Shown: in pieces, positions 9,999-22,056 of the stretch
Numbering within the stretch: the first letter of the stretch is position 1
Layout: every line of letters starts with the position of its first letter
Source of the DNA: an uncultured bacterium
GTDB lineage: Bacteria > Bacteroidota > Bacteroidia > Flavobacteriales > Flavobacteriaceae
Length of the DNA stretch: 64,000 nt
Direction: 5' to 3'
Assembly: GCA_963974305.1 (NCBI GenBank)
Contig: CAXBCS010000005.1
Coordinates: forward strand, 1,537 to 65,536
Notes under the pieces: model-generated
Database searches by the model: none
What the model saw: only the letters and a program-made list of their open reading frames with translations
Told to the model about the DNA's origin: nothing
Made by a program: the position numbers and the translations under genes

Positions 9999-11012
9999 TT
10001 ATTTCAGAAGTAATTTTTCAAAACCAGCGGTCACATAGGTTCCCGTTGAATCATTCTCTTTGGCAAATACAAGATAAGCATCAACATCCTTTAGATCAGA
10101 TAATACAGCTTTAGATTTTTCTAAACCCATTGCCATAAAAGCAGTAGCATATGCGTCGGCGGTGGCGCAATCTTTTGCAATTACCGTTGCTCCTAAAACA
10201 TCACTTTTTTCTGCACTCCCCGTCAAAGGATTGATGGTATGCACATACTGTTGTCCCGTTTGCTCATCTACTCTATTTTTTCGATAATTCCCTGAACTCG
10301 CCATTGACAGATTCTCTAAGGCAACGACAGCAACATGACTGCGATTATCTTGTTCAGAGTTGACACTTTCTACACCTACTGTCCAAGCTTTTAAACTACT
10401 TTGATTTTTACCACTTCCGCGAACTTCTCCGCCTAACTCAATTAAGAAATGTTGTAAAGCACGAGATTCTAAATAGACCGCGATTCGATCGATACCATAG
10501 CCTTTAGCTACCGCATTAAAATCGAGGTAGACTTCTGGGAATTTTTTGGAAATCTTGCCGTTTGGCGAAATTGCGATTTTATCCAAACCTACATACTGCA
10601 TCATAGAATCCAAGCGTAGGCTGTCAAAAACGGCAATGGGTTTTGTATCTCCAAAACCATAGGCATTGCGCAAACCTCCAACCGTTGGATCAAAGTAATG
10701 GTACGTCGTTTCATATACCTTTCGCGAAAGCGTAAACACTTCTTTAAACATTTCGTCCACGATCACAGTAGTATTTCCCCTATTGATTTTGGAAATATCA
10801 CTTTGAGGTATGTAGGTAGACATGGATTTATTTACTCTATAAATCACAGAGTCTATTCCTTTTTGAACCACTGCTGCATTCTCTGCTGTACCATAATATT
10901 TAACAGCATAGGCCGTCCCAAAGGCTTCTCCTCGCAGTGTGATTTCATCAACGGTTTCAGGGCCACTACAGCCAATAATAAACAAGCAGATTAGTGAAAG
11001 TAAAAAGCGCAT
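9999..11012 (-). CDS. apbE: FAD:protein FMN transferase ApbE
   Basis: Lipobox IIGC; MSTY...SDIS.IN, FDPTVG, LDFNAVAKGYG, ELGGE, MASSGNYR, INPLTG, ADAYATA. Confidence 0.95.
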   Translation of the reverse strand: MRFLLSLICLFIIGCSGPETVDEITLRGEAFGTAYAVKYYGTAENAAVVQKGIDSVIYRVNKSMSTYIPQSDISKINRGNTTVIVDEMFKEVFTLSRKVYETTYHYFDPTVGGLRNAYGFGDTKPIAVFDSLRLDSMMQYVGLDKIAISPNGKISKKFPEVYLDFNAVAKGYGIDRIAVYLESRALQHFLIELGGEVRGSGKNQSSLKAWTVGVESVNSEQDNRSHVAVVALENLSMASSGNYRKNRVDEQTGQQYVHTINPLTGSAEKSDVLGATVIAKDCATADAYATAFMAMGLEKSKAVLSDLKDVDAYLVFAKENDSTGTYVTAGFEKLLLK

Positions 11013-11410: not shown

Positions 11411-13408
11411 TTACTTGTTCAATACCTGTTTGAAATAAGCCGCTTTTTGAGTATCTCCAAGCTCGGTATACAAAAGCACGACTTCTTTGCCTAACTCGGT
11501 GTCTGTCGTGTCTAGTAAAAACGCTTTTGCTAGACTATCTGTAGCAATAACTCCTCTATTAATAGCTCCATAAAACTGGGCGACAGTCATCCAATATTGT
11601 TTTTGTTTAGGAATTGCAGGATTGGCAATCGCCATCGTGCTGAAACCTTTTTGTAAGGCGGCATGTGCCGCTGGCTGCTTGACCAAACTTAATAAAAAGG
11701 TATAGGCAGCCTCTAATTGTGGATTCACGACAAGAGCATCTTTAATTGCATCTACTGCTTTTGAGTACTGTTTTATAGCGGCATAACAATAAGCCGAATT
11801 GAGCAACATATCAGTATTTGACCCATCAATTGCTTTTGCCTTTTCAAAGAATCCCAGTGCCGCATTATAGTCTTTATAGTAGGTGTACTGAATCGCACCC
11901 AAATTATTTAAAACATAAGGTTGATGTGCATCAATCTCTAAGGCACGCTCATACAATGCCTGGACTTCTTTTATATGTTCTGTGCCCTTTGGCTCAAGTG
12001 ATCTTATAGGCAAAGTTGTAAACAGTTCATCAGCGAGAAAGGTATGTGCTCTAAAGGAGTTTTGTAAATGTTTGATATCATGACGATATAAGACCAAAGT
12101 ATTTTCCCAGTCGTCATTGCGCTCAATGGTTCGCAAACTATATATCCCAATAATAAAAACAAGACAGCTTAACAATGCAATATTTGCCGTTTGCATAGAA
12201 AATTTCGCTTTCGCGAAAGCGTAGCCACGCCACAACAATATTCCAAGAACCAAAACAAATCCAACAGAGAATATATAAGCAAATCGTTCGGCGACAATGC
12301 CTACCATTGGGTATACTAAATTGACAACAATTGCCATTACACCCAACCATATGACCAAGGCCAAGCCTAATACATCGCGTTTCAAGAATTTAATAATACC
12401 ATAGATCCCTAAAGGAATAAAAATCAAGATCGCCACCCATACTTGCCAATAAGAAAAATCAGCCAAAGGAATCTGACTGTATCCATAATAAAAGGAAAGA
12501 TCTTCTGGAAAAATGAGTAGTTGTAGATATAAGAATGCCGAGTAGCATCCAATACCCACACGAGTTAGAAAACTATCATCAACAAATAACGGATTTTCAA
12601 AAAATTGAAAGGTTCTAAATTCTTCCCCTGGAATGGCCGCTCTTAGGACTAAAACTATCACTAAAGACAGAGTCACCGAACCCACTGCCATTAAAATACG
12701 TTTGCCAGAGGTACTCGTATAGTATAGAAGTACAGGTATCAACCCAAAAAAGGCTAAGGAGCTCATCTTACTTAAGAATGCCAGTAAAGCCAAGGCACCA
12801 ATTCCCCACAAGCGTTTTTTCAAACCTTCCCTTGCAAATCGCACACATTCTATGAGTGCCCATAGCAGGAATACCATCATTAATAATTCGTCTCTACTCT
12901 TAATGTTATTTACGACTTCCGTATGGATAGGATGCACCATAAATAATATGGTAATGATAAGCGGTAATCCAAAGGAATAGCCTTGAAGAACCATGCTCAG
13001 GAGATAGAGTAGTAAAAAACCATTTAAAGCATATAATAGAATATTAATAAGGTGACTAACATTGGCCTCGGTAAGCACATTATTGTCTAGCTTTTCCTGG
13101 GGTTGCTGAGAATCTGGCAAAGCGCCAAAGAGGGATTTTTCTATCGCAAAGGTCGTATGTGTTAATGGGCGATATTCAAAGCGTGTTTCTCCATCATCTG
13201 CATAATAATTGGTAAAAAGTCCGGGGATATTCTCAATACCATCTGCTGTTTTAGGATTTCCATTAGTGACATAATAATCATCCATGCCATATTCATTATC
13301 GATGGCATTGAAATACACTAAAAAAGGGAGTAACAGTACAAAAAGATAGCTCAATTTGCGTTGTCTTGCAGTAAATTTTAAAATCATAAAGAACCTAAAC
13401 TTAGTCAA
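11411..13408 (-). CDS. TMTC-like GT-C glycosyltransferase with C-terminal TPR repeats
   Basis: MDDYY loop, EYRPLT, HPIHTEVVNNIKSRDELL, LSK, VAERFAY, RNDDW, then TPR-like helices; about 11 TM segments; start may be ATG 13387. Confidence 0.85.
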   Translation of the reverse strand: MTKFRFFMILKFTARQRKLSYLFVLLLPFLVYFNAIDNEYGMDDYYVTNGNPKTADGIENIPGLFTNYYADDGETRFEYRPLTHTTFAIEKSLFGALPDSQQPQEKLDNNVLTEANVSHLINILLYALNGFLLLYLLSMVLQGYSFGLPLIITILFMVHPIHTEVVNNIKSRDELLMMVFLLWALIECVRFAREGLKKRLWGIGALALLAFLSKMSSLAFFGLIPVLLYYTSTSGKRILMAVGSVTLSLVIVLVLRAAIPGEEFRTFQFFENPLFVDDSFLTRVGIGCYSAFLYLQLLIFPEDLSFYYGYSQIPLADFSYWQVWVAILIFIPLGIYGIIKFLKRDVLGLALVIWLGVMAIVVNLVYPMVGIVAERFAYIFSVGFVLVLGILLWRGYAFAKAKFSMQTANIALLSCLVFIIGIYSLRTIERNDDWENTLVLYRHDIKHLQNSFRAHTFLADELFTTLPIRSLEPKGTEHIKEVQALYERALEIDAHQPYVLNNLGAIQYTYYKDYNAALGFFEKAKAIDGSNTDMLLNSAYCYAAIKQYSKAVDAIKDALVVNPQLEAAYTFLLSLVKQPAAHAALQKGFSTMAIANPAIPKQKQYWMTVAQFYGAINRGVIATDSLAKAFLLDTTDTELGKEVVLLYTELGDTQKAAYFKQVLNK
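12206..12221. repeat. palindrome CGCTTTCGCGAAAGCG, copy 3
   Basis: Inside the TMTC-like gene, read as AFAKA. Confidence 0.95.
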
Positions 13409-13474
13409 ATATAACCATTCTTAATAAAGAAAAATACAAGCTAAAAAAATGAGTAACACGCAGCAATTAATTAC

Positions 13475-14134
13475 TCAACGTCTCAAATTTAAAGGAATCG
13501 ATGGTAAAATCACTTTATAAATTGTTTCTGGCAAGTCGTTTATTAAAGGAAGATCAACTTCTGAAAAACTGACATTATCCCAACCTAATGGCGTGGTTTC
13601 TTTGGCCGCTCTCATTAGCCCGCGACGAAGTTTTTTAGTATGATTGAGATAATTTTCTTTTTTAAGAAAAAGCCATATTCGATCTTCTTCATGTTCCTCT
13701 TTAAACTGTTTAAAACCAAGATATTCATTAAACCCAATTGCCTTTTGATTGTCTTTGCGCACTTCAATAAATATTTCCTTCATATCCATAAGGTAAAAAT
13801 GGAAATCTAAAACACAAAGTGCTGAGGCTACAGCTGTTCGGGATGCTAAAAACTGTTGATCCCAGATAAAAATACCAGCTTCTATAGTCATCTCTTCGAA
13901 TGAACGAATATTTCCATTGAGCAATCCTACACGTCTTCCCTTTGCTTCTATAACAAAATAATAGTGCATCGCATTATCAATGCTGTCAAACCATTTTTCT
14001 TGATCTGCCTTTGTAATTTCTTTCTGATAAAACATGCGGGTACGTATCGCTGGGCTATTCCGCTCTAGGCGTACCAGTTCTAAGTCGGCTTTTTCCAACC
14101 GCCTTAGGGTCACATTGTATTTTTTAATAATCAT
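13475..14134 (-). CDS. GNAT N-acetyltransferase (PseH/RimJ-like)
   Basis: LRRLEKADLELVR..RN, ITKADQEKWF, V..DN.KAI.F...LGF. Confidence 0.8.
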   Translation of the reverse strand: MIIKKYNVTLRRLEKADLELVRLERNSPAIRTRMFYQKEITKADQEKWFDSIDNAMHYYFVIEAKGRRVGLLNGNIRSFEEMTIEAGIFIWDQQFLASRTAVASALCVLDFHFYLMDMKEIFIEVRKDNQKAIGFNEYLGFKQFKEEHEEDRIWLFLKKENYLNHTKKLRRGLMRAAKETTPLGWDNVSFSEVDLPLINDLPETIYKVILPSIPLNLRR

Positions 14135-15048
14135 AATTCCTTCTGTGCAATGGAGTACATAGGCTTACTGTTTAAAACAATGAAAATATGCTTTATATAA
14201 CCTCCAACAACTCCAAAACATAGTAAAATTAAGCTCGTTGAGAATAGTATGGTCACAATGAGAGCAGTAAAACCACGTACGGGAACATCATAAACAAATC
14301 GAGCAATTACAAAAATAATTCCCGCTAAAAAGCTTAGGGATGATAATAATAAACCACCTAGAGTCATAACTTTCAAAGGCCAGGTACTGTAAAATAAAGT
14401 AGATTTCGCTACCATTCCAAATAGTTTGCCTAAGGAATATCCAGAACGCCCGTTGGGTCTTTTGTAATGAGATACTGTTACAAAGGCAATTTCGTTAGTA
14501 TACCAAAAAAGTACTTCGTCTAAGAAAATAAAATGTCTATTATGCTGAAGCATTTGATCTACAAGGCTCCGTGAAAGCAAACGAAATGACGACCCTTTGT
14601 GTGGTCCACCTTCAAGAAGTTTACTGCCAGAACGGAGAATACTACTTCCCAATTTACGCCAAAAGGAATGCTGTTTCTCGCCAACACCATATACCAGATC
14701 GGTCAGTGTATCCTTCTGTTTTTGAATTAGTTTAGGAATATCTTCAGGTGTATTTTGCAAATCATCATCTATAGATATTACAAAGTCTCCTTTGGCATTT
14801 TGAAATCCACAAAAGGTGGCGCTATGCTGACCATAATTACGCGAAAAGCGGATGAGTTTAACAGTTTCAGGGAACTGCGCTTTTAATAATTGTAAGACTT
14901 GCCAACTACGATCCTCTGAATAATCATCGACAAAAATTACCTCAAAACTACCCTCAAGGTCTGCAAAAGTAGCGTGAATACGAGCGTACAAATCTTCAAG
15001 CGAGACAGCGCTATTATACACCGGAATAACGACAGAATAGAGGATCAT
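14131..15048 (-). CDS. GT2 polyprenol-phosphate glycosyltransferase (ArnC/GtrB-like)
   Basis: SVVIPVYN, VDDYSED, SRNYGQH, IDDDLQN.PEDIP, two C-terminal TM helices. Confidence 0.9.
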   Translation of the reverse strand: MILYSVVIPVYNSAVSLEDLYARIHATFADLEGSFEVIFVDDYSEDRSWQVLQLLKAQFPETVKLIRFSRNYGQHSATFCGFQNAKGDFVISIDDDLQNTPEDIPKLIQKQKDTLTDLVYGVGEKQHSFWRKLGSSILRSGSKLLEGGPHKGSSFRLLSRSLVDQMLQHNRHFIFLDEVLFWYTNEIAFVTVSHYKRPNGRSGYSLGKLFGMVAKSTLFYSTWPLKVMTLGGLLLSSLSFLAGIIFVIARFVYDVPVRGFTALIVTILFSTSLILLCFGVVGGYIKHIFIVLNSKPMYSIAQKEL

Positions 15049-15147
15049 TCGTTTAATATTAGATCTAGACTAGGGTCCATTTTAAAACTAAAATTGTCTC
15101 AAAACAATTACATTTGCAAGTATAAACATTTTTATTGGCACACCTTT

Positions 15148-16272
15148 ATGATCCCATTTAATGTCCCTTTCGCATCTGGAGATGAATTGACACAGATTTC
15201 GGCGGCAATAGCCGATAATAAGCTCTCTGGTAATGGACATTTTACAAAAAAATGTAAAGCCCTTTTCAAAGAAAGGTATGGTTTTGATAATAGCTTTTTA
15301 ACCACGAGTTGCACAGCGGCTATTCAGATGGTTGCAATAGCCATGGACTTAGAAGCTGGAGATGAAATTATACTTCCTTCTTATACCTTTAGTTCTACAC
15401 CAAATCCCTTCTTGATTGCAGGAGCCACAGTAAAATTTGCCGATTCAGAACCTGATCATCCTAACGTTTCTTTAAAGTCTATAGCTTCTCTTATTACCCC
15501 AAAAACAAAGGCTGTCATGGTGGTGCATTATGGCGGATACGCTTGCGATATCATAGGTATCAAGGCATTGTGTGACCAACATGGTTTGCTTTTAATAGAG
15601 GATGCTGCTCAATGCATACAGGGCTTTTACCAAGGGAAACCTTTAGGGAGTTTTGGAGACTTTTCGGTATTTTCTTTTCACGAAACCAAGAATATCCACT
15701 GTGGAGAAGGCGGACTGCTTGTTGTCAACAATCTGGATTATGTAAATAAAGCAGAGACCATTTGGAACTACGGTACAAATAAGAAAGCTTTTTTAAGCGG
15801 GGAAGTCGACAGCTATGAATGGACAGGATTAGGACTTTCATTTTGTCTTTCAGAGATCAATGCTGCTTATTTATACGCCCAATTACAGCATGTTGAAAAA
15901 GTTACACAAACACGAAAATCACTTTGGGAATCCTACTTTCGAGCTTTGAAACCTTTAGAGAAATTAGGGCTACTCAAACTCCCACAAATTAAGGGAGAAG
16001 ATAGCAGTTATCATACCTTTTATGTGTGTACGCTTTCGCGAAAGCGGTATCTCGACCTTCAAAAACATTTACTCACTAATTTTGTTTTGGCTGTACAGCA
16101 CTACTACCCTTTACATGAAAGTGCCTTTGCTAAAGCAGAAGGCCTCAGTGCAGATTTACCCAATGCTAGTTATTTTGGAGATAACCTTCTGCGATTACCA
16201 TTGTATGAAGGCTTAACAACAACTCAAGTTGACCAAATTACCAAGCTTATTTTAGATTTCTACAAAAACTAG
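15148..16272 (+). CDS. DegT/DnrJ family sugar aminotransferase, WecE/RffA-like
   Basis: TTSCTAA, PSYTF.ST.N.F, VHYGGYAC, EDAAQ, FSFHETKN..CGEGG, AAYLYAQL. Confidence 0.88.
   Translation: MIPFNVPFASGDELTQISAAIADNKLSGNGHFTKKCKALFKERYGFDNSFLTTSCTAAIQMVAIAMDLEAGDEIILPSYTFSSTPNPFLIAGATVKFADSEPDHPNVSLKSIASLITPKTKAVMVVHYGGYACDIIGIKALCDQHGLLLIEDAAQCIQGFYQGKPLGSFGDFSVFSFHETKNIHCGEGGLLVVNNLDYVNKAETIWNYGTNKKAFLSGEVDSYEWTGLGLSFCLSEINAAYLYAQLQHVEKVTQTRKSLWESYFRALKPLEKLGLLKLPQIKGEDSSYHTFYVCTLSRKRYLDLQKHLLTNFVLAVQHYYPLHESAFAKAEGLSADLPNASYFGDNLLRLPLYEGLTTTQVDQITKLILDFYKN
16031..16046. repeat. palindrome CGCTTTCGCGAAAGCG, copy 4
   Basis: Inside the WecE-like gene, read as LSRKR. Confidence 0.95.
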
Positions 16273-17015
16273 TTTCCTTTCAAAGCATTGAGAAAGTCGG
16301 GACGTTTATTTCTAGAAACTGGCACCTTATTATTTTCTGAGAGTAGTACATAGCCCTCATTGAGGTAACGTTCTATGTGGTCAAGATTAATGAGATGGGA
16401 TTTATGTACATGATAGAAAAGACTGTGGTCAAGCATTTTTGTAAAATGCCCAATACTACTGGAACTCAGTAACGGTTTTCCATTTTGAATGATAATCTTG
16501 GTATATCCATCTACTCCTTCGCAACGAATAATATCTGCAATGGTGATAAATTCTAGGCCATCTTGTGTAGGCACAACGATTTTCTTTTTCTGAAATGTCT
16601 GTACGCCCATATTGGCGATGAGCTGCTTGTTCTTTTTTAGAGCGTCTTTAGACTCGACATTCTGAATGGCTTTGGAAACCGTTTGAATGAGATCTTCGCG
16701 ATCTAAGGGTTTGACGAGATAACCAATAGCACAATGCCGAATAGCTTCCAAAGCATAAGAATCGAAAGCGGTGGCAAAAATGATTTCAAAATCAGGCGTA
16801 CCCACTTGGGATAGTAGTTCGAAACCATTCATTTCTGGCATTGCAATATCCAAGAATACCAAATCTGGCTTAAGGGATTGGATCAATTCAATCGCTTCAT
16901 GAGGATCTTGTGATTGTGCAATAATCTCCAATTCGGGACAGTACCGCTCTAATTTGCTTTGTAGAATGGCTAATGCCTTAGGTTCATCATCTACTATTAT
17001 TGTCCTAATCTTCAT
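16269..17015 (-). CDS. LytTR-family response regulator
   Basis: IIVDDE, LVFLDIAMP, FATAF, YLVKP receiver; IIRCEG..GYT and VHKSHLINL LytTR domain. Confidence 0.95.
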   Translation of the reverse strand: MKIRTIIVDDEPKALAILQSKLERYCPELEIIAQSQDPHEAIELIQSLKPDLVFLDIAMPEMNGFELLSQVGTPDFEIIFATAFDSYALEAIRHCAIGYLVKPLDREDLIQTVSKAIQNVESKDALKKNKQLIANMGVQTFQKKKIVVPTQDGLEFITIADIIRCEGVDGYTKIIIQNGKPLLSSSSIGHFTKMLDHSLFYHVHKSHLINLDHIERYLNEGYVLLSENNKVPVSRNKRPDFLNALKGN

Positions 17016-17802
17016 GATCTATCATACTATTAAACGTAAGGTGTACTGCTGTCCCTACTGGATTTTGTAATTCCTCAACACTATGTTCAATATGCCATTT
17101 TCCATTATATTCTAATAATTTAAGGCGGTCCTGCAATACAGTAGTCGATCTATTTTCGATGGTCTTTGTGGTTTTCTTAAAAAGCTCTTTGGCAGCCGTA
17201 AGACCTATTCCATCATCAATGACAGAGACTTGGAAGCCATCATCTTCTAGTGCCCTAAACTCAACCTTAATTGTTCCTGATCCTTTTTTGTGAAAGATGC
17301 CATGATTGACGGCATTTTCTACTAAGGGTTGTAATAACATCGAAGGGATTTCTGTGTCATCTTCCAAAGCATCATCAACGGTTATCTCATAATGAAGCCT
17401 ATCTTCAAAACGCAGTTTTTCAATGGATAAATAGTTATCAAGAAGATTCACTTCCTCCTCAAGTGTAATCGTTTGCTTACGCGAAAGTTCAAAAAAGGCT
17501 CTGATCAATTTAGAGAATTTCGAGAGATATTCTTCAGACTGCTCCACTTCATTACGTTGAATATAATATTGAATCGCATTGAGGGAATTATGCACAAAAT
17601 GCGGATTCATTTGTAAGCGTAGCGCCTGAAGTTCTATCGCATGCATTTGTTGTTGGATTGCTAATTTATCTTCATAGTTTTGAGTAATGAGTGAGTTACG
17701 CTTTTTGACAAAAACTGTAAAAACAAAAATAAGAGCAACCACCATTATTGCCAAAACAATCCCTATTCCCACCACTACAATGCCTATTTTTTCATCGGAC
17801 AT
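17005..17802 (-). CDS. LytS/YehU-type histidine kinase, single TM, no own sensor domain
   Basis: LRLQMNPHFVHNSLN H-box, LLQPLVENAVNHG, DDGIG; only one N-terminal TM helix. Confidence 0.93.
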   Translation of the reverse strand: MSDEKIGIVVVGIGIVLAIMVVALIFVFTVFVKKRNSLITQNYEDKLAIQQQMHAIELQALRLQMNPHFVHNSLNAIQYYIQRNEVEQSEEYLSKFSKLIRAFFELSRKQTITLEEEVNLLDNYLSIEKLRFEDRLHYEITVDDALEDDTEIPSMLLQPLVENAVNHGIFHKKGSGTIKVEFRALEDDGFQVSVIDDGIGLTAAKELFKKTTKTIENRSTTVLQDRLKLLEYNGKWHIEHSVEELQNPVGTAVHLTFNSMIDHED

Positions 17803-18398
17803 AACATCGCTTTAATAAAACATGAATACAATACTGCATTTGTAAAAAAGGTGAGGATTAATGAAATCTCACGAGTTATTGATATGTCTAATTTAATCGC
17901 CCATGATAAAGGCAGGTACCCTAAATTAAATATTAGCAGACCAATAGTAATCCAAAATTCCGCTAGTCTTAAAAACTGCACGACTTCATCTGATTTTAAT
18001 AAACGCACATAAAATCTTACCGTGAGATAAAACAGTATTATAGTACCTCCAGTTTGCGCGATTATAAGTGGCTTAGAAATATCTTCAACTATAAAACTTA
18101 TTAATAGCAGGACAAAGTATAGAACAAGAAGTCTGATTACATAAATACGCTTACTAAGCACTTCGTAAAACCACAAAATAAAAAATGAAAACATAAGAAC
18201 ATCAAAAATGGTGTAGAAGATATTGTCAATACGTCTATCATCACTAAAATATGCCCCAGTTTCAATAAGGATTACCATTGCGAAATAATACCCGAAATTC
18301 CTCAGTGATGTCTTACTAATCTGTTTGTATCTATAGATACTAACTAGCAAAGCCGTAATCACTAGAATACGAAACCCTAGAATCGCAAAATCTCCCAT
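17784..18398 (-). CDS. stand-alone 7-TM membrane protein
   Basis: 204 aa with seven hydrophobic segments; FWITIGLLIF..G..P and NAVLY motifs; overlaps the kinase start by 19 nt. Confidence 0.8.
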   Translation of the reverse strand: MGDFAILGFRILVITALLVSIYRYKQISKTSLRNFGYYFAMVILIETGAYFSDDRRIDNIFYTIFDVLMFSFFILWFYEVLSKRIYVIRLLVLYFVLLLISFIVEDISKPLIIAQTGGTIILFYLTVRFYVRLLKSDEVVQFLRLAEFWITIGLLIFNLGYLPLSWAIKLDISITREISLILTFFTNAVLYSCFIKAMLCPMKK

Positions 18399-18418
18399 AA
18401 TTACTAATCTTATATAAG

Positions 18419-18949
18419 TTATGGTCTTCCGTCATATCCTGGTGGAGGTGGCGGCGGTGGATCCTTTTTAGGATCAGTATTACCTAATGGATCCATACGA
18501 TCGTAGTTGGTTGTAGGTAGAAATTCTTCGTTAATCGGCACATATATTGGATCAATTTCTGACTCAGGCTCAACTATTTGAGCAGCTTTAAAAAATACAG
18601 TCGATTTAGGTGTATTTGTATCATCAGGTACTGCAGCAAAATATACAATCATTGCTGTTTTATCAATATTATTCTCTTTTTGATATTCCTTGATTTTGAT
18701 GAGATACTTCTGCAAGTCCTCTATATCAGTAACAACAGCCCCAATATTATCAGCAGATTCATTGGCCGGATATTGACTCTCAAGACCAATATTGATAAAT
18801 TGATGTTGATTTTCTATGAATAATGACTGCATAGAAGCTGCTTCTTCATCAGAAATAATATTCTCAGGATCCCCAGATGGGCAATCACAACAGGAAGTCA
18901 TAAATAGTCCGACTGCGCAGAGCAAGAGTATTCGTTTTAAATTTTTCAT
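18419..18949 (-). CDS. lipoprotein with poly-proline C-terminal tail
   Basis: MKNLKRILLLCAVGLFMTSC lipobox; VYFAA and STVFF core; ends DPKKDPPPPPPPGYDGRP. Confidence 0.8.
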   Translation of the reverse strand: MKNLKRILLLCAVGLFMTSCCDCPSGDPENIISDEEAASMQSLFIENQHQFINIGLESQYPANESADNIGAVVTDIEDLQKYLIKIKEYQKENNIDKTAMIVYFAAVPDDTNTPKSTVFFKAAQIVEPESEIDPIYVPINEEFLPTTNYDRMDPLGNTDPKKDPPPPPPPGYDGRP

Positions 18950-19026
18950 TAGAATGGTTTTAAATGTTAATGTAAAATACAATTAAATAAATTGTTGCAT
19001 TCGTTATATCCCAGTATCACAATAAT

Positions 19027-19539
19027 CTAGGATCTTGTTACTGGCTTAATAATAAGCTTAATTTTTCCTATAACACTAGGATCAAATTTTTCATCTCTTT
19101 TAGAATTTTGATTGGCAACTTCGACTGTGATAACCTTTCCCACGAGTTTTGTGTTTTCATCATTGGATGAATTTTGGTCAAGTTTAGCAGTTGACTTTTT
19201 AGTTGTATCAAGCTTCTGTTGATCGGCTCGATCTTTAAAATTAATACCTGCCTTAATGGAATTATCAACTTTCATATCGGCCACTTTCTTAGAAAAGGGA
19301 ACATCAATATGCGTTTTTAATCGCTTATTTACTTCCGATACCTGATTTTCCAAATCTGAAGAATTTATTTCTTTTTCTAAAGTACCAAATACCAGTGGAA
19401 TCTCAATTTCGGCAGCTTCTATAGCCAATTGGATTTGCGAATGTTCATCAGTTTCAATTTCGTTTTGTAAATAAGTATTAAAGTCAAAACTTTTTAAAAC
19501 TTCATACTGTACCATTGATATAAAATAGGATAATTCCAT
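19027..19539 (-). CDS. hypothetical cytoplasmic protein (N-terminal helix plus terminal beta strands, Trypco/DUF2589-like layout)
   Basis: MELSYFISMVQYEVLKS helix, IQLAIEAAEIEIPL strand, GKIKLIIKP C-terminal strand; family link is a resemblance only. Confidence 0.65.
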   Translation of the reverse strand: MELSYFISMVQYEVLKSFDFNTYLQNEIETDEHSQIQLAIEAAEIEIPLVFGTLEKEINSSDLENQVSEVNKRLKTHIDVPFSKKVADMKVDNSIKAGINFKDRADQQKLDTTKKSTAKLDQNSSNDENTKLVGKVITVEVANQNSKRDEKFDPSVIGKIKLIIKPVTRS

Positions 19540-19558: not shown

Positions 19559-20386
19559 TTAAACTTCTATTGACGGAAAAGAACTTGTTCTAAAATTGAT
19601 TTTCACTCCTCCAATAATGTCTGCACTCATATTAACTGCAGCAGTCGATTTCTCGTTTACTACCTTGACTCGCACTCGACTCGAAGTATAGCCTCCACTT
19701 ACGTTGGCCCTTCCCCAGCCCCATCGCGCTGAAGCTGATCCTTAAACTCCCCATTTATTGGATTTTGAGTCAATATCATAAGTTCTGCTTTCGGTAAAAT
19801 CAGTTGAATCAATATGAAAAACAAGTTTGGTTTCAACGAGACCATTTGTTATCTCAACCTTTTGCATTCCAAGTTTTAAAATGGTCACGAGCATATTATA
19901 ACTCTCTGATGCAGATTGTGATATTTTTTCAAGTACGAATTTTTGAAGATCCAATTTTGAAATTTTCTTTGCTGAAGTTCCAGTAATTTTTGCTTTCAGA
20001 TCTACTTGATTATTGCCCTCAGCAATAGTTACGTTTTGAAAATGAGATTGCATAGCCTCAATATCTTCGTCTACAAGATTCACATTAGCTCCAGTACCTA
20101 AAGTCAGCCCTAAAACTTCCTCTATGTAATTGTCTAACGAATCCTTATCCTCGGTATTAAGCGCATCAAAGTCGGTTGAACTAATTCCTGTAACCTCCTT
20201 TTGATATTCAATAAGAGGTTTTGAAACTTCGGCTACGAGCTGTGAATAAGCCTTAAGTTGTTCCATAGAAGAATCAACCACAATTTTGTACACGTTCCGT
20301 ACAAGGTCTGAAGTAAAGTCTACAAAGCCAATGTTTTGTACATTTCCAAGTTGTTCCATGGCTTCATCTGCTGATGTATTTGACAT
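19559..20386 (-). pseudogene. 275-codon gene with an internal TAA; helical N-terminus and amphipathic beta-hairpin C-terminus
   Basis: ORF 19742..20386 stops at TAA 19742-19744, but the same frame continues 60 codons (GSASARWGWG...FPSIEV) to TAA 19559-19561, 19 nt before the next ATG. Confidence 0.8.
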
Positions 20387-20743: not shown

Positions 20744-20752
20744 AAAGGCTAT
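20744..20752. repeat. direct repeat AAAGGCTAT, right edge of the accessory block
   Basis: Contains the nqrF TAG (minus strand). Confidence 0.5.
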
Positions 20753-22056
20753 CCTCCAAAGTCATCAAAGCGAATATGCTCATCTGGAATTCCAAAGTCT
20801 TCTCCCATTTTCTGAACAGCGTTGTTCATTAATGGAGGTCCACAGAAATACAATTCGATATCTTCTGGTGCTTCGTGCTTACTTAGGTATTGGTCAATCA
20901 CTACTTGGTGAATAAAGCCAACAAACCCATCGCCCTCTGCATCGACATTTTCTTTTACTTTCCAGTTGTCTTCTTCCATAGGCTCAGAAAGAGCTAAGTA
21001 AAATTTGAAGTTAGGAAATTCTCTTTCTAAAGAACGGAAGTGCTCCAGATAGAATAATTCACGTTTAGAACGCCCACCATACCAATAGGTAACAGTACGA
21101 CCTGTACGTAAGGTTTTGAATAGGTGATAAAGGTGTGAACGCATAGGTGCCATTCCAGCTCCACCACCAACATAGAGCATTTCTGACTCAGACTCGTTGA
21201 TAAAGAATTCGCCGTAAGGTCCTGAGATAATTACCTTATCCCCTGGCTTCTGTGCGAAAATATATGAAGAAGCAACTCCTGGATTTACATCCATCCATTG
21301 GTTCTTAGCACGATCCCATGGCGGAGTAGCAATACGTACATTCAACATAATCTCTCTTCCTTCTGCAGGGAAAGAGGCCATAGAATAAGCACGTTCTACC
21401 GTTTCATTATTTTTCATCGTCAAAGGCCATAATCCAAATTTATCCCATTCTGCTTGGAATTTATCTGGAGTATCATGCTCTTCTGGATGCGCAGTAATAT
21501 CAATATCTTTAAAGTTAATCTCACATTCTGGAATTTCAATCTGGATATAACCCCCAGCTTTATACCCCATATCTTCAGGAATTTCCACAACAAATTCTTT
21601 AATGAACGATGCAACATTGTAGTTACGTACTACAGTTGCTTCCCATTTCTTAATTCCGAAAACTTCCTCAGGAATGGTAATGTTCATGTCTTGCTTCACC
21701 TTCACTTGGCAAGCCAAACGTGCACCTTGAGCCAATTCTTTACGGCTAAAGTGTGGAGTTTCTGTTGGCAATGCTTCTCCACCTCCAGCAAGGACGTGAC
21801 ACTCACATTGAATACAAGTTCCCCCTCCACCACAAGCAGATGGTAAGAAGATTTTGTAATTTCCAAGAGTTGCAAGTAGGGTACTACCTGAGGCAACTTC
21901 TACTTCTCTTTCTCCATTGATGGTAATCTTTACCGGTCCCGATGGAGATAATTTTTGTTTGGTAAAAAGGAGTATCCCTACCAACAATAAAGTCAGTACT
22001 AAAAAGGCTACAATGGTAGCAATGACAACTCCCGACATACTAGCAGCTAATATCAT
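20749..22056 (-). CDS. nqrF: Na+-translocating NADH:quinone oxidoreductase subunit F
   Basis: SACGGGGTCIQC and RLACQ 2Fe-2S motifs, RAYSMA, GGGAGMAP, YFCGPP, FDDFGG. Confidence 0.97.
   Translation of the reverse strand: MILAASMSGVVIATIVAFLVLTLLLVGILLFTKQKLSPSGPVKITINGEREVEVASGSTLLATLGNYKIFLPSACGGGGTCIQCECHVLAGGGEALPTETPHFSRKELAQGARLACQVKVKQDMNITIPEEVFGIKKWEATVVRNYNVASFIKEFVVEIPEDMGYKAGGYIQIEIPECEINFKDIDITAHPEEHDTPDKFQAEWDKFGLWPLTMKNNETVERAYSMASFPAEGREIMLNVRIATPPWDRAKNQWMDVNPGVASSYIFAQKPGDKVIISGPYGEFFINESESEMLYVGGGAGMAPMRSHLYHLFKTLRTGRTVTYWYGGRSKRELFYLEHFRSLEREFPNFKFYLALSEPMEEDNWKVKENVDAEGDGFVGFIHQVVIDQYLSKHEAPEDIELYFCGPPLMNNAVQKMGEDFGIPDEHIRFDDFGG

Follow-up and report, generated by a model that had tools for sequence, protein, structure and literature searches.

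The stretch of DNA considered here (the window) comprises 64,000 nucleotides (nt) of contig CAXBCS010000005.1 (assembly GCA_963974305.1) from an uncultured bacterium of the Flavobacteriaceae, and contains a tightly packed cassette of four genes encoding a lipoprotein, a stand-alone protein with seven transmembrane (TM) helices (the 7TM protein), a histidine kinase without a sensor domain and a response regulator. An earlier note on this DNA had described the four genes as co-oriented, with a 20-nt gap between the lipoprotein and 7TM genes followed by overlaps of 19 nt (7TM to kinase) and 11 nt (kinase to regulator), and the coordinates of the open reading frames (ORFs) agree exactly with this description. 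Protein lengths are given in amino acids (aa), and the features of the locus are the following:

18419..18949, minus strand: lipoprotein gene (ORF with signal peptide; 176 aa counted from the ATG)
17784..18398, minus strand: gene of the stand-alone 7TM protein (ORF; 204 aa)
17005..17802, minus strand: gene of the sensor-less histidine kinase (ORF and Pfam; 265 aa)
16269..17015, minus strand: gene of the response regulator, made of a receiver (REC) and a LytTR domain (ORF and Pfam; 248 aa)
17784..17802, minus strand: overlap of the 7TM and kinase genes, 19 nt, ATGTCCGATGAAAAAATAG, which holds a run of six A residues (sequence)
18950..19026, minus strand: intergenic region of 77 nt, 5′ of the lipoprotein gene (sequence)

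The overlap between the 7TM and kinase genes is consistent with translational coupling, and a scan of the sequence found no terminator-like site inside the cassette. Ahead of the lipoprotein gene, a promoter-like TATTTTAC occurs at 18972-18979, which is 23-30 nt upstream of the ATG; it resembles the TAnnTTTAC found in a similar position in sister loci, and may act as the promoter of the unit. Since this element sits there, the TTG at 18982 is an unlikely start for the lipoprotein. Direct repeats of the LytTR type were not evident by eye upstream of the lipoprotein genes.

These four genes are one copy of a widespread and undescribed four-component signalling module of the Bacteroidota, as shown by gene order, domain content and co-conservation. 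Hidden Markov models (HMMs) of the 7TM family, built from the 7TM alignment, and likewise of the lipoprotein family were searched against 401 genomes from 302 genera of the family of the window, taken to be Flavobacteriaceae. The 7TM protein was found in 256 of the 401 genomes and 200 of the 302 genera, often in several copies, and the lipoprotein in 251 genomes. A comparison of the two tables, made by eye and not by script, shows five genomes in which the 7TM protein occurs without the lipoprotein (one of these at the edge of a contig), no genome with the reverse, and the same negatives listed for both searches. These genomes are related and do not count as independent cases, with the pattern covering about 200 genera. 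In a sample of the whole phylum, the 7TM protein occurs in 47 of 301 genomes, which include other families and classes, and it was absent from the genomes sampled in two large families (0/63 and 0/49).

The order lipoprotein, 7TM protein, short kinase and regulator is kept in 41 of the 43 loci examined, a recurrence that places the arrangement far beyond chance and supports the earlier suggestion, put forward for checking by a neighbourhood survey, that the four genes form a conserved unit. Each of the 30 best-scoring loci of the same family has a small secreted or anchored homologue directly upstream of the 7TM gene and a single-TM kinase of 250-280 aa downstream, followed by a regulator, and in all 30 the kinase gene overlaps the 7TM gene. 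Of 13 loci examined in addition, 11 are arranged in this way, among them two that belong to another family of the class and two in the genome of the window. One of the two exceptions runs into a contig end, with its kinase probably at the start of contig C85, and the other is weighed below. Two other species of the genus carry the four genes, their 7TM proteins being only 38% identical to that of the window, and no neighbour beyond the four genes is conserved across genera.

Two further modules exist in the genome of the window, both with a kinase and regulator of the HisKA_3/NarL class described below. One is complete (G000:C13:16291-19200), and the other (G000:C1:186000-188849), which has the lipoprotein and three tandem 7TM genes, runs into the contig end; its kinase and regulator are probably those that start contig C85 (G000:C85:1-1400; the kinase begins ...LFSVFMRRKNSL). 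Tandem copies of the 7TM gene are common, with runs of up to four, and so are tandem lipoprotein genes (for example at G163:C57, G209:C1, G067:C1; G350:C37, G056:C22). Several 7TM and lipoprotein copies carry single in-frame stops, which indicates that the family turns over quickly.

The kinase of the window matches the Pfam families His_kinase (PF06580; E-value 1.5e-22, 80 bits against a cut-off of 25.2) and HATPase_c (5e-07). It has one hydrophobic helix at approximately residues 6-32, with only about five residues ahead of it, and this helix is followed by the juxtamembrane segment KKRNSLI and a helical linker (about 25 aa) that leads to the H-box QMNPHFVHN and then to the HATPase domain. 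No HAMP, PAS or GAF domain and no match to PF07694 was found in it by Pfam or in its sequence, and its predicted topology is N-out/C-in; the description of a kinase with one TM helix and no extracellular input domain is therefore borne out. Among the six PF06580 kinases of the genome this is the only short one of the LytS type, the frames of the other five being 385-1047 aa long. When aligned with BtsS of Escherichia coli, the second glycine-rich motif of the ATP lid (G2) is replaced by NRSTTVLQDRL. All the LytS-class kinases of the module have [HR]S[ST]xV[LI]x[DE]R in place of the GxGxxN of BtsS (17005-17200 in the window, the C-terminal part of the protein). The regulator matches Response_reg (7.8e-22) and LytTR (1e-14) in Pfam, and its best NCBIfam match is BtsR, under the cut-off of that family.

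The AlphaFold2 (AF2) model of the 7TM protein, obtained with 18 sequences, contains seven TM helices together with one short amphipathic helix on the cytoplasmic side (predicted local distance difference test, pLDDT, 86; predicted template modelling score, pTM, 0.83), and the positive-inside rule applied to the loops points to an N-out/C-in topology. No Pfam or NCBIfam family matched the protein at an E-value of up to 0.1, and this includes the profiles of 7TMR-DISM_7TM and PF07694. A search of 1.84 billion representative proteins gave 102 clusters of relatives, all of 78-239 aa and none of them fused to another domain, and the open frames listed around 7TM matches in whole-genome six-frame searches span 203-287 aa. 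Word-indexed protein searches gave few 7TM relatives, none of them named, and all the named members of both families, 7TM protein and lipoprotein, are called “hypothetical protein” and have no Pfam domain.

Within the 7TM family, TM6 is the most conserved helix: F148, W149 and P163 are invariant, and G153, F157 and G160 are conserved at 87-96%. These residues make up what looks like a glycine-rich face, of the kind typical of helix packing. A polar set, E/D46, N59, Y62, N63 (T in the copy of the window), N187 and Y191, is conserved with both classes of kinase described below and maps to the periplasmic halves of TM2, TM3 and TM7. When the model was compared with the Protein Data Bank (PDB) using Foldseek, the top matches were class B/C G-protein-coupled receptors (GPCRs) and proteorhodopsin, with E-values of 0.1-0.5 and TM-scores of at most 0.57, and none reached an E-value of 0.001 or lower; this weak likeness of fold would be a generic one.

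In view of the short kinase and the separate membrane protein, the two genes might be thought of as a single gene that a frameshift, or an error of sequencing, has interrupted in the run of A residues at 17785-17790, and indeed one A added to ATGAAAAAATAG yields ...MKKIGIVVV..., in frame with the kinase. Nevertheless, both the split and the 19-nt overlap are kept in orthologues of the same genus in which the A run is interrupted, the split is seen in all the other loci examined, and none of the 102 clusters of relatives exceeds 239 aa. Moreover, the C-terminus of the 7TM protein is predicted to be cytoplasmic by the positive-inside rule, so that in a fusion protein the kinase domain would end up on the outer side of the membrane. 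Conservation in relatives and topology rule out a frameshift-split gene, to which we give practically no weight. The same data bear on two statements of the earlier note. The gene before the kinase does encode only seven TM helices, as seen in the model. On the other hand, the notion that a receptor domain was “split off” from the kinase is not supported, given that none of the 102 clusters holds a fused relative, that the predicted topologies would not allow a fusion and that no similarity to the fused membrane domain of BtsS was detectable.

A link between the 7TM protein and the kinase comes from the comparison of loci. Among the 30 best-scoring ones, 12, including that of the window, have a PF06580 kinase of the LytS type together with a LytTR regulator. 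The other 18, and all others seen in the phylum sample, have a HisKA_3 plus HATPase_c kinase together with a REC-GerE regulator of the NarL type. In the phylum search, the genus of the family with the most genomes sampled (coded g190) carries copies of the HisKA_3 class. In spite of their different catalytic parts, the kinases of both classes begin with a helix that ends in LFxxF and is followed by the motif [KR][KR]KNxL[IL] (FVFTVFVKKRNSLI in the window), from which a linker without HAMP or PAS domain leads straight into the phospho-accepting His. All three 7TM-linked kinases in the genome of the window have the [KR][KR]KNxL motif, and one other short HisKA_3 kinase examined in this genome (contig C48) has no TM segment. 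In a maximum-likelihood tree of 41 7TM proteins, the copies linked to LytS kinases form one split (Shimodaira-Hasegawa-like approximate likelihood ratio test, SH-aLRT, 87), so that a single change of kinase class suffices. The overlap of the 7TM and kinase genes is 19 nt in most loci of the LytS class, and 31 nt is typical of the HisKA_3 class. Together, the shared segment and the linkage across classes would be expected if the 7TM protein cooperates with the kinase helix and the two were jointly recombined onto different catalytic cores. We therefore agree with the earlier note in taking the stand-alone 7TM protein as the leading candidate for an input partner of the kinase, in view of its co-conservation across two kinase classes, the overlapping frames and the shared TM/juxtamembrane motif.

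The lipoprotein begins with a signal peptide, MKNLKRILLLCAVGLFMTS|C, with the lipobox LFMTS|C, both of the standard type. A Cys cluster (CCDC) follows, then an alpha/beta core of about 110 aa and finally a proline-rich C-terminal tail (PPPPPPPGYDGRP). The core of the family is marked in the alignment by the motifs TREFWFSLDxLKKYIxYVE, LGIRVYFAAYP and STVFxVPT, and the AF2 model (pLDDT 78) shows three helices and a beta-hairpin, with the C-terminal tail at low confidence. Neither Pfam nor NCBIfam holds a matching family at an E-value of up to 0.1, and the PDB gave no structural neighbour by fold and none by sequence profile. Four positions of the tail motif LN(Y/F)GxGGxPP, namely N156, G162, P164 and P165, rank among the best conserved in the family, each at 90% or more among 59 sequences from many genera; the tail of the copy in the window is divergent (DPLGNTDPKKDPPPPPPPGYDGRP).

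The lipoproteins of the LytS class have extra Cys residues after the lipidated one: in the window, the codons of C20-C23 lie at 18881-18892 (SCCDCPSG), and the variants SCCCNDA, SCCDETP and SCNNCPTG occur elsewhere in the class (loci L002, L003, L010, L012, L019, L029, L031 and L032). The homologues of the HisKA_3 class have a single Cys, at the lipidation site, and three relatives have a Cys in the tail (DINCNP). The cluster of the LytS-class lipoproteins could be a metal- or redox-sensitive site.

As for its location, the earlier note had called this protein a surface lipoprotein. The known signals for surface export in Bacteroidetes are C-X-K-(D/E)2, SDDDD and SDDFE (PMC5080379). The mature N-terminus, C-C-D-C-P-S, does not fit any of them, and several homologues (L012, L017 and L021) lack the lipobox Cys and have an N-terminal hydrophobic or TM anchor in its place. 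The lack of an export signal, together with these TM-anchored homologues, suggests that the protein is periplasmic, where it would be tethered to a membrane and off the cell surface.

The earlier note had gone further and proposed a circuit of signalling by a self-encoded peptide or by contact between cells, where the lipoprotein, or a fragment of it, would be the ligand for the 7TM protein of its own or of a neighbouring cell, by analogy with AgrCA, ComDE and BlpRH. These are systems with HPK10 kinases that have the receptor fused to them, and they require a precursor peptide together with genes for its processing and export; their likeness to the module lies in a regulator of the LytTR type and in a receptor with several membrane spans. 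The conserved motif in the flexible C-terminal tail of the lipoprotein and the conserved polar cluster in the periplasmic half of the 7TM protein would suit such a circuit, and LytTR regulators are well known to be frequent in peptide quorum sensing. However, pheromones diversify, and both the signal and the receptor of peptide quorum sensing are hypervariable, whereas here the tail and the polar residues of the 7TM protein are conserved, the former across genera. The locus has no ORF for a peptide precursor or for its processing or export, the gaps of 20 and 77 nt are too short to hold one, and the neighbouring proteins have no peptidase or ABC-exporter domains. Moreover, the kinase is of the LytS/BtsS type (PF06580) and not a peptide-sensing HPK10, the lipoprotein has no Bacteroidetes surface-export signal and is replaced in some loci by TM-anchored homologues, and most modules have a regulator of the NarL type and not of the LytTR type. 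These observations argue against both the analogy and the circuit built on it, which we consider very unlikely.

The hypothesis that we favour, with moderate confidence, is that the module is an accessory-sensor system, with the lipoprotein and the 7TM protein serving as input to, or as regulators of, a kinase of the intramembrane-sensing kind. Both proteins would join the kinase dimer in a membrane complex, and this complex would set the balance between kinase and phosphatase activities. The likely contacts would be of two kinds: packing of helices against the glycine-rich, invariant face of TM6, and an interaction at the inner-leaflet boundary with the [KR][KR]KNxL segment of the kinase, which is predicted to be helical onward into the phospho-accepting His. 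The periplasmic protein may sense a cue from the envelope or the periplasm, or it may gate the polar pocket of the 7TM protein by means of its conserved C-terminal tail, and the regulator would then alter the transcription of its targets.

The tail may dock into the 7TM protein, which leads to a bolder version of the accessory-sensor hypothesis, in which the 7TM protein would be a GPCR-like receptor with a tethered ligand. The tail LNYGxGGxPP would insert in a polar pocket formed by E46, Y62, N63, N187 and Y191, an envelope cue that moves the tethered domain would pull the tail in or out, and TM6 would relay the change to single-pass kinases of two classes. We hold this version to be unlikely; if true, it would represent a previously unrecognised and very common receptor architecture of the Bacteroidota.

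Several points weigh against the accessory-sensor hypothesis. The linkage of the genes would also suit both upstream genes being autoregulated outputs. The four genes may be co-transcribed, judging from the gene overlaps and the lack of terminators. One of the two exceptions to the gene order (L047) lacks an adjacent kinase and consists of the lipoprotein gene and two 7TM genes. In the LytS class, the TM helix of the kinase shows a mean pairwise identity of 35%, against 54% for the catalytic part, and the lack of the G2 glycines suggests that the catalytic or autokinase chemistry of these kinases may be unusual. Finally, the co-variation between ligand and receptor that the earlier note had proposed to look for did not appear: we saw none between the tail variants and the polar residues of the 7TM protein.

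The first of these points opens a different explanation, where the kinase would sense a property of the membrane by its own single helix, as a minimal thermosensor or lipid sensor, and the lipoprotein and the 7TM protein would be co-transcribed outputs, for example envelope-protective or feedback proteins. Both genes come first in the unit, a place where autoregulated outputs often sit, the TM helix of the LytS-class kinases is only moderately conserved, and a precedent exists in SaePQ, which is dispensable for activation and acts as feedback (PMC5083920). Nevertheless, pure outputs would hardly stay with two kinase classes that have just the TM/juxtamembrane segment in common, the overlap of their frames with the kinase gene is kept across the phylum, and the most conserved face of the 7TM protein resembles a helix-packing surface. 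We thus consider that the two proteins being mere outputs is rather improbable, and that their role as accessory sensors remains the preferred interpretation.

Among the known systems, the closest in kind is SaePQRS of Staphylococcus aureus (Firmicutes). There the intramembrane-sensing kinase SaeS is part of a ternary complex with the lipoprotein SaeP (146 aa) and the membrane protein SaeQ (157 aa), which induce the phosphatase activity of SaeS (PMC5083920). Both systems are four-gene units in which a small lipoprotein and a small polytopic membrane protein accompany a regulator and a kinase that lacks an extracytoplasmic sensor (PMC5083920; PMC3748130), and in both cases neither auxiliary protein resembles any protein of known function. 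They differ in that SaeQ has four TM helices and the 7TM protein seven, that SaeS has two TM helices, a HAMP domain and an OmpR-type partner, and that the gene order is P-Q-R-S; moreover, SaePQ provides a phosphatase-inducing feedback, a role not known to apply to the module of the window. Homology to SaeP, SaeQ or LiaF was not found by Pfam or NCBIfam at an E-value of up to 0.1, a separation based on profiles and not on pairwise comparison. The module can be regarded as SaePQRS-like in kind but built from proteins without detectable homology to it. It also shows two traits of the intramembrane-sensing class, namely a kinase without an extracytoplasmic input domain and auxiliary membrane proteins that are co-encoded and co-conserved with it.

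In the LiaFSR and VraTSR systems of cell-envelope stress, a sensor-less HisKA_3 kinase is controlled by a membrane protein encoded just upstream, and the sister loci of our module likewise use HisKA_3/NarL-type pairs. However, neither LiaF nor VraT is related to the 7TM protein, LiaS combines a HAMP domain with two TM helices, these systems include no conserved-tail lipoprotein, and the copy in the window has a LytS/LytTR pair. The kinase core of this copy, PF06580 plus HATPase_c, and its adjacently encoded REC-LytTR regulator are shared with BtsS/BtsR (YehU/YehT), LytS/LytR and systems of the YpdA type. The sensor BtsS has a fused membrane domain of seven TM helices, with the N-terminus out, which binds pyruvate within its helices (PMC10653868). 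BtsS carries this domain and a GAF domain in one chain with the kinase, whereas the kinase of the window has one helix and a separate 7TM protein. Homology between the 7TM protein and the fused domain was considered and set aside, as no similarity was detectable (hhalign probability 0.15%, with a single template sequence, which makes it a weak test).

Lipoproteins are also known as accessory periplasmic inputs to kinases, as in NlpE-CpxA and in QseG-QseE, where the lipoprotein is a co-sensor of the two-component kinase (PMC12691602, PMC6075780). Those kinases own periplasmic domains for the contact with the lipoprotein, whereas in the module a go-between, the 7TM protein, would be needed because only about five residues of the kinase are exposed. 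The 7TMR-DISM receptors resemble the 7TM protein in their seven TM helices (in its AF2 model) and in what is probably an N-out orientation, but the 7TM protein matches no 7TMR-DISM_7TM profile and has no intracellular signalling fusion, none of its clusters exceeding 239 aa. In the literature no description of the module was found, with most subscription journals outside the coverage of the search, which fits the earlier statement that such a system is not characterised in Flavobacteriaceae. The components, the 7TM partner, the wiring to two kinase classes and the phyletic breadth appear to be new, and the control of a sensor-less kinase by auxiliary proteins is known.

Regarding its genomic surroundings, the cassette sits in the interval from nqrF (20749-22056) to an ApbE gene (9999-11012), and the same nqrF-apbE interval holds a cassette in one genome of the same genus and in one of another genus (L063 and L064). 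An OmpA-like protein and a lipoprotein precede the cassette in those two relatives, and such proteins are also encoded near some loci of the LytS class; among neighbours that could point to the regulon, conservation was lineage-specific synteny only. Two small unannotated ORFs (19027-19539 and 19742-20386) replace this pair in the genome of the window, and no other module has them as conserved neighbours. Between the regulator and the genes on the ApbE side lies a block of four glycosylation genes (11411-16272), which among the three genomes only that of the window has. The regulator gene and the convergent gene of a DegT-family aminotransferase (14974-16272) share their last four bases (16269-16272), with no terminator-like structure between them.

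In one genus, the genes of an OmpA-like protein (569 aa) and of a 459-aa lipoprotein lie between the kinase and the regulator of the module (L055, G139:C5, 4324-7700), and similar genes flank the module in L060, L063 and L064; these two genes are possible regulatory targets or partners of the module. A role of the cassette in anti-phage defence was also considered and discarded, as PADLOC gave no match except a weak one to the receiver domain.

Sensor-less or single-pass kinases are common, and how most of them receive their signal is an open question, for which comparative genomics now points to a defined set of partners. This set consists of two unannotated families that occur in some two thirds of the genomes sampled within the family of the window, and also elsewhere in the phylum, and both of these families of hypothetical proteins gain a functional context. 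The same TM/juxtamembrane segment is wired to two unrelated classes of kinase and regulator, which offers a testable hypothesis of intramembrane signal transfer. If the module acts as an accessory-sensor system, it would add a major sensory system to the marine and soil Bacteroidota, whose signalling is poorly known.

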